Under the pieces are notes generated by a model that was not told the origin of the DNA, made no database searches, and saw nothing but the letters and a program-made list of their open reading frames with translations. From positions 1,239,843-1,281,633 of the forward strand of contig CP070689.1 in assembly GCA_020353155.1 (NCBI GenBank): a DNA stretch of 41,791 nt, in the 5' to 3' direction. Source of the stretch: Deltaproteobacteria bacterium. Its GTDB lineage: Bacteria > Desulfobacterota > Syntrophobacteria > BM002. The first letter of the stretch is position 1, and each line of letters opens with the position of its first letter. Position numbers and translations under genes: made by a program. Shown piece after piece: positions 11,646 to 41,425 of this stretch.

Positions 11646-12062
11646 ATGAAAAGTTATCGTAAGGAACTCTGGTTTGAAGTGCCCTCCCGGCGGGCCTTCA
11701 TCAACATTACTCCTCAAGTTGAACAATGCCTGAGGGAGAGTGGGATTAGAGAAGGACTCGTTCTGGTTAATGCCATGCACATAACCGCCTCAGTCTTCAT
11801 TAACGACGATGAATCAGGGTTACATCATGACTATGATGTGTGGCTGGAAAAACTTGCACCCCATGAGCCTGTCTCTCAATATCGCCACAATGTGGGAGAA
11901 GACAATGCTGACGCCCACATGAAGAGACAAATCATGGGGCGTGAGGTGGTCGTGGCGATAACAGACGGCAAGCTGGACTTTGGTACTTGGGAACGGATCT
12001 TCTACGGCGAATTCGACGGGCGTCGGCGCAAACGTGCCCTGGTCAAAATCATAGGCGAATAG
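11646..12062 (+). CDS. yjbQ: YjbQ / UPF0047 family protein
   Basis: [18 protein letters not shown] and [13 protein letters not shown] motifs. Confidence 0.93.
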
Positions 12063-12063
12063 G

Positions 12064-12561
12064 ATGGAACCAAAGATGAAACATTTTGGAGACGAAGAGG
12101 TACGGCAATTTCTGACTTTTCACGGTCTGGAAAGGCAGATTCATAGTTTTACTGAAAGCACTGAGAACGCTTATCTTGCAGCTGAGGCCTTGGGAGTGGA
12201 ATTAGGCCAGATTGTCAAATCGGTAGTCTTTCTGGCAGATGGAAAGCCGGTTTTAGTTCTCATTTCGGGGGATATGAACGTCCATACTAAAAAACTCAAA
12301 ACCCTCCTTGGAGTTCGAAAAGTTAGAATTGCCGATGCAGAGACGGTTGTTACCGTGACTGGGTATCCGGTTGGAGCTGTCCCCCCGATGGCCCACAGGC
12401 AGAGAATCCCCACTTATTTGGATGAAAGTCTAAAACGCTTCATGAAAATCTTTCCGGCAGCCGGCACCACCCAGAACATGTTCAGCACCACCTTTGATGA
12501 ACTGTTGAGACTCACCACTGCAGAGGTTATCGACGTGGCAGCTCCGAAGAAGAAAAACTAG
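12064..12561 (+). CDS. YbaK/EbsC-family aminoacyl-tRNA deacylase
   Basis: AEALG..GQIVKSVVF, TGYPVGAVPP and AAG motifs. Confidence 0.9.
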   Translation: MEPKMKHFGDEEVRQFLTFHGLERQIHSFTESTENAYLAAEALGVELGQIVKSVVFLADGKPVLVLISGDMNVHTKKLKTLLGVRKVRIADAETVVTVTGYPVGAVPPMAHRQRIPTYLDESLKRFMKIFPAAGTTQNMFSTTFDELLRLTTAEVIDVAAPKKKN

Positions 12562-12570
12562 GCACCATTC

Positions 12571-12693
12571 CATTTCACATTTCTCATTTCGCATTTATCA
12601 TTTTCCATATGGAAAAAAGGCCAAAATTACAAGTTAGTCTAAGTCAAAATGAGAAATGATAAATGAGCAATGAGAGATGAAAAATGTGAAATG
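12571..12693. repeat. Mirror-image heptamer element: (CATTTNN)5 / spacer / (AAATGNN)6-7
   Basis: Left CATTTCA CATTTCT CATTTCG CATTTAT CATTTTC; right AAATGAG AAATGAT AAATGAG CAATGAG AGATGAA AAATGTG AAATG; outer 12 bp are a perfect inverted repeat. Confidence 0.88.
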
Positions 12694-12737
12694 TTGGGGG
12701 GTATTGACTTGAAACATCTGTCTGGTTATTTATCTTT

Positions 12738-12821
12738 ATGAGGCTGGGGCCTCACTCTCTTTCTCCTTTCAAATAACCCCGAGAGGCCATGGGTGCTTAT
12801 TACGTAGCCTCTTATTTTTTT
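12738..12821 (+). ncRNA. Candidate sRNA 1 (anti-SD seed)
   Basis: TTGACT at 12704 with an AT-rich -10-like region about 17 bp downstream; hairpin GAGGC-TGGG-GCCTC; seed ACTCTCTTTCTCCTT; terminator-like stem AGAGGC..GCCTCT followed by TATTTTTTT. Confidence 0.55.
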
Positions 12822-12890
12822 ACCCTTTTAATTCAGGGCTAGGAAAAATACCTAGGTAGTTTATCGCGAAAAAATACTGCCTTTGCCTTA

Positions 12891-12920
12891 TTGAAATCCC
12901 CACTTGATTATCGCTATCAT
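12891..12920 (+). promoter_or_regulatory. sigma70-type promoter of candidate sRNA 2
   Basis: TTGAAA-N18-TATCAT. Confidence 0.5.
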
Positions 12921-12925
12921 GATAG

Positions 12926-13033
12926 TGTCTTCAGGGGTGTAAAATCACCACCTGTTTTGCAACTCTTTTCTCCTTACCCCACCGTTCGACCGCGCCAGAC
13001 CATAAAGGCAACATGAAAGGTGGGGTTTTCTTT
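12926..13033 (+). ncRNA. Candidate sRNA 2 (anti-SD seed; sibling of sRNA 1)
   Basis: Hairpin CAGGGGTG-TAAAAT-CACCACCTG; seed ACTCTTTTCTCCTT; stem ACCCCACC..GGTGGGGT followed by TTTCTTT. Confidence 0.55.
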
Positions 13034-13227
13034 GTCCACTCCCTCCATGTCAACAAAACCCCTGCTAACCTGAGTGTGACTGACCAGTTAAGGGTATTCT
13101 TTTTAAGAGGGTAATGGTTTTTCTGATTGACGGGATTTCTTGATCGAGTATATCGTGTTTTAAGAAGTCTGGAAATGGAATGGAGGGGTGAGCTGCAAGC
13201 GACTCAACTCTTATAAGGAGGGAGATC

Positions 13228-13443
13228 ATGTCTGTGGGTGCCTACAAGATTATTGAATTGGTGGGGACAAGTGATGTTTCTTGGGAAGAGGCAGCCAAGA
13301 ACGCTGTGGAGACTGCCAGCAAAAGCTTGAGGGATCTGAGAATCGCTGAGGTCAAGCAACTGGATATGAAAATCGAAGGAGGTAAAGATGTCGCCTATAG
13401 AGTAAGATTAAATCTGTCTTTTAAATATGAAGTAAATGAGTGA
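13228..13443 (+). CDS. Dodecin-family protein
   Basis: YKIIELVGTS..SWEEAAKNAVETASKSLRDLRIAEV..YRVRLNLSFKYE; strong AAGGAGG RBS. Confidence 0.93.
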   Translation: MSVGAYKIIELVGTSDVSWEEAAKNAVETASKSLRDLRIAEVKQLDMKIEGGKDVAYRVRLNLSFKYEVNE

Positions 13444-13536
13444 TGATGAGAGGATGCAACAAAACCGCTCAAGTCTACATACTATAATGAATTATCGGGT
13501 CCAGCATTCATCCTTCTGAAACCTAAGGGGTTGCTC

Positions 13537-14004
13537 ATGGATCGTTCTGAGATTATCAACCTTTTGAAAAACTGCGAGTTTTTCAAAGGGCTGCAAAAAG
13601 ATGACCTCGAGGAAATGGCAAATCTTTGCAGTGTGGAAGCCTATGCAGCGGGAGATCACATTTTTCGGCAAGGCGATTTGGGAGATCGAATCTACATTGT
13701 CGCCGAAGGCAATGTTTTTTTGGAACGATCCGTAGATCTCGGCACACGTAAAGGAACTGCCTTTATCGGAATGCTCAGCAAAGGAAGAGTTTTTGGCTGC
13801 TGGTCTACACTTCTCAACGAAAAGCACACCCTCATGTCCTCGGCCGTCTGCCGGAAACCAACAAAAGTCTTGGCCATCAAGGGCCCGGATCTGAGAAAGA
13901 TTATGCTTCAAGACAATGAGCTCGGATTTAATGTTTTACAGAGGTTCTGCTTTTTACTTCGAGACAGGCTAAAGGGTGCATACGAGGCGATGGAAGAACT
14001 CTGA
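13537..14004 (+). CDS. Stand-alone cyclic nucleotide-binding domain protein
   Basis: FFKGL...IFRQGDLGDRIYIVAEGNV...G.VFG pattern; no HTH follows. Confidence 0.85.
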   Translation: MDRSEIINLLKNCEFFKGLQKDDLEEMANLCSVEAYAAGDHIFRQGDLGDRIYIVAEGNVFLERSVDLGTRKGTAFIGMLSKGRVFGCWSTLLNEKHTLMSSAVCRKPTKVLAIKGPDLRKIMLQDNELGFNVLQRFCFLLRDRLKGAYEAMEEL

Positions 14005-41349: not shown

Positions 41350-41425
41350 TGGTGGGCGGGGAGAGATTCGAACTCTCGACTTCCGCCGTGTGAGGACGGC
41401 ACTCTCACCACTGAGTTACCCGCCC
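41350..41425 (-). tRNA. tRNA-Val(CAC)
   Basis: GGGCGGG/CCCGCCC acceptor stem, ACCA end, anticodon arm CCGTC-CT-CAC-AC-GGCGG, GTTCGAATC T-loop; 76 nt. Confidence 0.97.

Follow-up and report, generated by a model that had tools for sequence, protein, structure and literature searches.

The tandem small RNAs (sRNAs) NmsRA and NmsRB of Neisseria (NgncR_162/163) are described in PMC5362039 as paralogues of about 70% identity that share one intergenic region, each having its own promoter and Rho-independent terminator, and that repress translation via anti-Shine-Dalgarno (anti-SD) motifs. A similar layout was found in a deltaproteobacterial genome of 3.21 Mb (a single contig, hereafter G000), in the gap between ybaK and the dodecin gene of the window analysed here, the window being the whole stretch of 41,791 nucleotides taken from contig CP070689.1. 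This gap holds two tandem genes, units 1 and 2, which like NmsRA/NmsRB have one predicted promoter and one predicted terminator each and carry a predicted anti-SD motif. Unlike in the Neisseria pair, only a seed of 14-15 nt is common to the two units, their scaffolds are unrelated, there is no sequence or Rfam match and the lineage lacks Hfq. In Alphaproteobacteria, the multi-copy cuckoo/CcsR sRNAs (RSs0680) carry, according to PMC4615179, the motif CCUCCUCCC in the loops of two to four adjacent hairpins. Here too the stems vary and conservation of sequence is confined to a C/U motif of the anti-SD type, but the motif is ACUCUNUUUCUCCUU and single, and it lies in an unpaired linker between the 5' hairpin and the terminator; these differences of motif and placement, together with the lack of an Rfam match, led us to reject membership in cuckoo/CcsR.

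We consider it reasonably probable that units 1 and 2 are stand-alone + strand genes for base-pairing sRNAs of ~85 and 105-110 nt, the seed of which would occlude the Shine-Dalgarno (SD) sequence plus spacer. The features of the two units and their flanks, in coordinates of the window, are the following:

12704..12732, + strand: promoter-like region of unit 1 (-35 TTGACT at 12704-12709, 17 nt, -10 TATTTA at 12727-12732)
12738..12823, + strand: predicted sRNA of unit 1, ~85 nt
12739-12754, + strand: 5' hairpin of unit 1 (GAGGC-TGGG-GCCTC at 12741-12754)
12754-12768, + strand: seed of unit 1, ACTCTCTTTCTCCTT, within an unpaired linker reaching 12780
12782-12812, + strand: terminator stem of unit 1 (AGAGGC at 12782-12787, GCCTCT at 12807-12812)
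12813-12821, + strand: T-run of unit 1, TATTTTTTT, directly after the stem
12839..12859, no strand: CTAGGAAAAATACCTAG(GTAG), an inverted repeat and putative regulator site located before the unit 2 promoter
12872..12920, + strand: promoter region of unit 2 (block AAATACTGCCTTTGCCTTATTGAA at 12872-12895, -35 TTGAAA at 12891-12896, 18 nt, -10 TATCAT at 12915-12920)
12926..13036, + strand: predicted sRNA of unit 2, ~105-110 nt
12932-12954, + strand: 5' hairpin of unit 2 (CAGGGGTG at 12932-12939, CACCACCTG at 12946-12954), imperfect, with one bulged A
12955-12975, + strand: unpaired seed of unit 2, core ACTCTTTTCTCCTT at 12962-12975
12976-13026, + strand: 3' module and terminator of unit 2 (ACCCCACC at 12976-12983, GGTGGGGT at 13019-13026)
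12977..13032, + strand: 3' module restricted to the family, within the terminator of unit 2, with CCCCAYCG/CGRTGGGG as its outer stem and ACCGCGC(C)AGACC and GGCAACA as conserved unpaired stretches
13027-13033, + strand: T-run of unit 2, TTTCTTT
12064-12561: ybaK, upstream flank of the gap
13228-13443: dodecin gene, downstream flank of the gap

The region 12000-13700 was read directly, and the promoter boxes, hairpins, seeds and T-runs of an earlier reading of the letters (hereafter the original prediction) were all found in place. The gap is also free of open reading frames (ORFs) as that reading had claimed, none longer than 54 amino acids (aa) being present between ybaK and dodecin. Of the flanking genes, ybaK (tRNA_edit type) is accompanied by a UPF0047 gene on the upstream side, and dodecin by a gene for a cNMP-binding protein on the downstream side. 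In both units a hairpin followed by a T-run occurs on the + strand only, and these intrinsic terminators bound short predicted transcripts.

A simple promoter and terminator scan of 12400-13400 yielded 7 promoter-like sites, versus 1.5 +/- 1.1 in shuffled sequences. The boxes proposed for unit 2, TTGAAA-N18-TATCAT, were called by the scan with 10/12 matches. For unit 1 a different pair (12709-12736) was called, and the boxes originally proposed are retained on conservation instead: TTGACT was preferred as the -35 because it is invariant in 4/4 homologues, as is the -35 region TATTGACTT, the -10 position reading TAnnnT in 3/4 of them. Neither terminator was called in the region scanned, because both loops exceed the 8-nt loop limit of the scan. 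No GG-N10-GC pattern was detected in either unit, and a sigma-54 promoter was rejected for both in favour of sigma-70-type boxes.

Conservation was assessed by blastn against 40 relatives and by covariance models of unit 1 (R1) and unit 2 (R2) in the family, which comprises 22 genomes. Positions 12718-12816 were matched by blastn in G012, G020 and G018, and R1 detected unit 1 in 4/22 family genomes belonging to three genera, with 95.6 bits in the window and 95-100 bits in those three relatives; beyond these 4 genomes R1 returned nothing else credible. A fragment of the unit 1 promoter, identical to that of G012, is present in G007, where the contig ends inside the promoter, and in metagenome contigs the unit 1 seed matched 3 stretches, only one of them a true homologue. 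Identity across the three genera is about 80%, the seed and the promoter being invariant. The alignment shows no change in the -35 region, the 5' stem GAGGC/GCCTC, the seed or the ACCCC that follows it; no two sequences have the same tetraloop, and there are changes in the terminator stem. In each of the four complete cases unit 1 immediately follows UPF0047-ybaK, in the same orientation, and the genes beyond it vary (unit 2 plus dodecin, MscS, a histidine kinase, a low-molecular-weight phosphatase).

As for unit 2, the region 12840-13446 is syntenic in G013 (89% identity), G005, G016 and G011. R2 recovered the unit in 6/22 family genomes at 83-132 bits (122.8 in the window), the next best match scoring 44.9 bits. 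Its seed, CTCTTTTC(T)C, is invariant, the sequence of the 5' hairpin varies and the promoter region is conserved in the six sequences. Copies of the unit 2 type with the same upstream block were found beside PilZ genes in G009, beside Metal_resist/DUF502 genes in G013 (the second copy of that genome) and close to a peptidase in G004. These neighbours are unrelated, and therefore unit 2 is not tied to dodecin. The conservation of structure and seed that had been claimed (promoter, 5' hairpin, unpaired C/U-rich seed and terminator) was thus borne out in the relatives of both units.

Upstream of the unit 2 type promoters, the CTAGGAAAAATACCTAG palindrome and the AAATACTGCCTTTGCCTTATTGAA block are conserved in G013, G005, G016, G009 and G004, including the loci that are not orthologous, and the palindrome (12839-12859) together with the block (12872-12895) is likely to be a regulator binding site. 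No second copy of these upstream motifs was found in G000 within 4 mismatches; the block has two other matches in the genome, with 5 substitutions each, and there is one weak site, with 5 mismatches, at G000:C1:1909774. The dodecin gene has its own conserved promoter block, 13115-13166 (TTGACGGGATTTCTTGATCGAGTATATCGTG), located after the unit 2 terminator and kept in G006, which has no unit 2. In silico, both units thus appear to possess promoters of their own that are independent of the flanking genes. The 5' untranslated region (UTR) of dodecin in G005, G016, G011 and G006 contains an additional conserved stretch of ~60-70 nt, which is absent from the window and matches nothing in Rfam.

At E <= 10, R1 gave no match to unit 2 and R2 gave none to unit 1. 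What the two units have in common is the seed plus the following ACCCC, on scaffolds that differ, and no overall homology of sequence or structure was found between them. Blastn of 12560-13230 against G000 returned repeats of query positions 1-138 only and no overall paralogues of either unit. The gene ybaK was found in 17/22 family genomes: downstream of it, unit 1 is present in 4 genomes plus the truncated G007 and unit 2 in 5, neither unit is present in 7 genomes with readable sequence, and neither was seen in G015, which has a partial ybaK at a contig end. Since both units occur together only in this genome, the tandem layout is a local juxtaposition peculiar to it. The original prediction had called the units siblings; this stands for the shared seed, which occurs at five loci of the genome, but not for overall paralogy, and the units appear to be seed siblings rather than close duplicates or overall paralogues.

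RNAalifold folded unit 1 into the two hairpins of the original prediction, with 19 pairs, 2 of them compensatory. In the six-sequence alignment of unit 2, 89% of the cells were paired, versus 36-56% when the partners were slid; 5/20 pairs were compensatory, and the covariation score of 0.260, versus 0.188 for shuffles, was reached by 3/500 shuffles. The seeds were unpaired in the consensus folds of both units, and consensus folds and pair counts revealed compensatory changes in the terminator stems. Taken singly, the unit 2 of the window folded as had been described (z = -2.68), whereas its unit 1 did not adopt the two-hairpin form at minimum free energy (MFE). Accessibility of the conserved seed was nevertheless predicted in 8/10 homologues overall, with unpaired probabilities of 0.85-0.99: the value is 0.94 in 3/4 unit 1 homologues, which take the two-hairpin fold, and 0.85-0.99 in 5/6 homologues of unit 2 (0.99 in the window). 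The two exceptions are the unit 1 of the window (0.59) and the unit 2 of G011 (0.23).

Known families were sought in Rfam 15. The whole window at gathering threshold yielded only a tRNA at 41353-41425, and nothing credible was obtained on 12700-13036 at E <= 10. The 25 weak matches returned for 12500-13300 at this E value were all below gathering; those with E < 0.1, to miRNA-precursor models, were rejected, since they fall on a hairpin at 12560-12700 and not on the units. The ybaK-dodecin regions of four relatives gave no Rfam match at E <= 0.01, and the literature searches made returned no work on sRNAs of this lineage. The units very probably represent new, undescribed families of a well-known kind of regulator. 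The inference of undescribed, seed-sharing sRNAs is thereby supported in silico by conservation, an accessible invariant seed, the lack of a match to any Rfam 15 family and three further seed loci.

The hairpin at 12560-12700 (z = -4.64) is long and A/T-rich, is made of 7-nt words (CATTTNN plus complements) and has 116 blastn matches across G000, being the sole repeated part of the intergenic region. Other arrays of 7-nt words (e.g. CTGTCNT, GAGCGGY, TCATTAGG) follow the ybaK stop codon in G005, G014, G008, G007 and G012; the site after this stop seems to attract word repeats.

The seed is not confined to the two units. The pattern ACTCT-N(0,1)-TTTCTCCTT occurs 5 times in G000 versus once for the backwards control, 28 times in the 22 family genomes (control 8) and 15 times in 100 genomes outside the family (control about 30). 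All five copies in G000 are followed by a terminator-like hairpin and a T-run. Sibling sRNAs are paralogous sRNAs within a genome (PMC4211561), and the common seed looked for in at least two sRNAs of a genome is present here at five loci. In genomes outside the family, most copies of the 14-mer lie on the strand opposite genuine ribosome-binding sites (RBSs) that abut the start codon; therefore, the seed is the antisense of a natural SD plus spacer. The three copies other than units 1 and 2, and the gene that contains the first of them, are:

G000:C1:2431714, + strand: seed sibling with a sigma-54 promoter (TGGCA-N6-TTGC type), hairpin and T-run
G000:C1:2773885, + strand: seed sibling with a sigma-54 promoter (TGGCA-N6-TTGC type), hairpin and T-run
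G000:C1:2735261, - strand: seed sibling with a sigma-54 promoter (TGGCA-N6-TTGC type), hairpin and T-run
G000:C1:2431626-2431785, + strand: sigma-54-type sRNA-like gene of the 2431714 copy, directly after a histidine kinase gene and an NtrC-type response regulator gene and before hrcA-grpE

The rpoN gene is present in the genome. By blastn, the 2431714 locus was found in 19/22 family genomes and in 2/3 genomes of a second family, and it follows the NtrC-type regulator gene in 6/6 relatives checked. The copies at 2773885 and 2735261 are the sole mutual paralogues (77% identity) and have full-length relatives in two other genomes. No Rfam match was obtained for the sibling loci besides a sub-threshold one to 6S RNA (32.3 bits, gathering 46.4, E 0.00044), at G000:C1:2735364-2735543 (-), immediately upstream of the 2735261 sibling. 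Further sRNA-like loci with C/U-rich stretches (CCUCCUU, CCCUCCCUUUUCUCU) and sigma-54 or sigma-70-like promoters were noted at G000:C1:2911568-2911627 (-), 2731887-2731960 (-) and 705331-705429 (-), the first two having the same 3' module.

Among sRNAs under sigma-54, Qrr1-5 of Vibrio depend on sigma-54 plus LuxO, and NrsZ of Pseudomonas is reported in PMC4253122 to be controlled by NtrBC plus sigma-54. The three sigma-54 siblings, and only these, are like Qrr and NrsZ in their sigma-54 promoter, in the NtrC-type regulator gene that adjoins one of them and in the single pairing region common to the siblings. Units 1 and 2 differ from Qrr in their sigma-70-type boxes and in the lack of both the GG-N10-GC pattern and any sequence similarity; with these boxes and no Rfam match at E <= 10, membership in Qrr (RF00378) was rejected. 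GlmY and GlmZ of Enterobacteria are homologous sRNAs whose promoter is of the sigma-54 or the sigma-70 type according to copy or species; they act via RapZ and activate glmS. They resemble the present set as sRNAs of one group under either type of promoter, but are not known to carry an anti-SD seed and have no sequence relation to it. In Desulfovibrio, sigma-54-dependent non-coding RNAs (ncRNAs) are reported in PMC4641369.

The weak matches of R2 led to other sRNA-like loci, which have different C/U-rich stretches and sigma-70-like or sigma-54 promoters and end in the same terminal hairpin. This 3' module reads CCCCAYCG ... ACCGCGCAGACC ... GGGCAACA ... CGRTGGGG plus a T-run. A covariance model of it (R3), built from 21 sequences, found three strong copies in G000, one of them in unit 2 at 59.1 bits, and across the class it matched 18/21 family genomes and 0/101 genomes of the other five families. 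In the outer stem 5/10 pairs are compensatory and 94.7% of the cells are paired; the consensus leaves the conserved internal nucleotides unpaired. Unit 1 does not have this module.

Neither Hfq nor ProQ was found in the single contig of G000, and Hfq exceeded the Pfam cut-off in only 1/122 genomes of the class; therefore, pairing would be independent of a chaperone or use an unknown protein. We regard as possible, though unlikely, a more far-reaching proposal, namely that the family has a modular, Hfq-independent riboregulatory system of its own, in which promoter class, anti-SD seed and 3' end are interchangeable and the 3' module (with invariant unpaired ACCGCGCAGACC and GGGCAACA) is where an unknown RNA chaperone or RNase, specific to the lineage, docks in place of Hfq/ProQ.

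Transcription, RNA ends, targets and the direction of regulation are inferred as follows. Each unit would be transcribed from its sigma-70-type promoter into an RNA with a hairpin at the very 5' end, the invariant unpaired seed 5'-ACUCU(C)UUUCUCCUU-3' and an intrinsic terminator. Both units are part of a set, specific to the lineage, of five or more loci in this genome with the seed ACUCU(N)UUUCUCCUU, the other three being of the sigma-54 type and the most widespread of them adjoining an NtrC-type regulator gene. The seed is predicted to pair with the SD and spacer of target mRNAs, 5'-AAGGAGAAA(A/G)AGAGU-3', which would block binding of the 30S subunit and lower translation, in a manner that would work without Hfq or ProQ. 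A hairpin at the first nucleotides can protect the 5' end of an RNA, and the 5' hairpin may do so here; the terminator hairpin and U-tail would confer stability on the 3' end.

RNA data consisted of assembled metatranscriptome contigs from one study (four of five RNA runs, among ten runs listed), which carry no information on strand or ends. Contigs cover 12574-12967, 12700-12974, 12886-13002 and 12961-13065 and none covers 13080-13187, a gap that is uninformative. Such cover places both units in RNA libraries but does not prove discrete transcripts. Strain differences were listed at 12730, 12775, 12792, 12832, 12921-12960 and similar positions, and none of those listed falls in 12754-12768 or 12962-12975. 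As a putative target, a gene for a lipoprotein-like protein of 169 aa has the RBS-spacer AAGGAGAAAAGAG (G000:C1:850606-850621) directly before its ATG, complementary to the seed. The sequence AAGGAGAA(A/G)AGAG-ATG at this gene (G000:C1:850619) is kept in 8 orthologues, but the gene came only 97th among the 3614 start regions and counts as no more than a lead.

Several observations weigh against stand-alone sRNA genes with a pairing seed. Both units are patchy in the family, at 4/22 and 6/22 genomes. Covariation of unit 1 is low, with 2/19 pairs, and the six pairs of its 5' stem never vary. The unit 1 of the window has an MFE of -22.3 kcal/mol, versus -15.4 for the two-hairpin form (z = -1.26); its terminator is weakened and has lost the CCATGG inner stem of the relatives, and its seed is partly buried, so that this copy may be a weakened one. 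The unit 2 promoter lies inside the RNA contigs 12574-12967 and 12700-12974, as might result from read-through or carried-over DNA no less than from separate RNAs. Perfect complementarity of at least 11 nt is not commoner than for reversed seeds (48 versus 72 and 65 versus 58), and on 3614 crude start regions shuffled seeds gave the same duplex energies as the real ones. Finally, the 3' end of the 16S rRNA gene is masked (23,431 bases are masked in the genome), so that the match to the anti-SD is based on the universal CCUCC core.

These points leave room for other explanations. The units might be cis-acting parts of their neighbours, unit 1 as the 3'-UTR or terminator of ybaK or an RNA derived from that 3'-UTR, and unit 2 as a leader or attenuator of dodecin. 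Unit 1 does follow ybaK wherever it is present, in 5 genomes unit 2 is flanked by ybaK and dodecin, and RNA contigs bridge the 3' side of ybaK through unit 1 into unit 2. However, past the ybaK stop each unit has conserved promoter boxes of its own, unit 2 type copies stand beside unrelated genes, dodecin keeps its own conserved promoter in G006, where unit 2 is absent, and seven genomes with readable sequence after ybaK carry neither unit, which makes a cis-acting role improbable. We think it decidedly improbable that the RNAs are real and the C/U-rich stretch is not a seed but a site that binds or titrates a protein (a cold-shock protein, S1 or an unknown chaperone). Such a site would agree with the lack of a target signal above controls, with the failure to find Hfq or ProQ and with the conserved unpaired nucleotides of the 3' module, which suggest protein contacts; yet the stretch is the exact antisense of a strong SD plus spacer, the 14-mer outside the family lies mostly opposite real RBSs, and each RNA carries the motif once, whereas sponges typically have several repeats.

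Chance resemblance or functionless, decaying remnants would account best for the unit 1 of this genome, whose terminator is the weakest and whose seed is the least accessible in its family, and for the patchy distribution. Identity of ~80% over three genera with an invariant seed and promoter, the covariation of unit 2 and the excess of the seed pattern (5 versus 1 in the control) make this very improbable. A further alternative, that the AAGGAG motifs of the minus strand are RBSs of translated micro-ORFs, is extremely improbable. A GTG or TTG does lie 7 nt after AAGGAG for both units in the window, and the GTG is found in 4/4 unit 1 homologues. However, this GTG is part of the invariant hairpin stem, the unit 1 peptides differ and one stops after 3 aa, the start codon of unit 2 is present in only 3/6 homologues, and there is no terminator on the minus strand. 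Micro-ORFs on either strand were rejected as not conserved. Loss of the seed from homologous loci and translated minus-strand micro-ORFs had been named in the original prediction as grounds for abandoning it; the seed is conserved in the homologues and the micro-ORFs are not.

The genomes of this sulfate-reducer-like lineage are uncultured Desulfobacterota-type metagenome-assembled genomes, and hardly any regulatory RNAs are known from such lineages, in a class that lacks Hfq (1/122 genomes above the cut-off). For annotation, the ybaK-dodecin gap is not empty and should carry two ncRNA features, and the loci would yield two covariance models for the units and one for the common 3' module. A seed common to sigma-54 and sigma-70 loci, a family-restricted 3' module and an Hfq-less host give the set added interest. 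The conserved 3' module is a possible bait for the missing RNA chaperone, and the five-member seed family would join two-component and sigma-54 input to copies driven by sigma-70.

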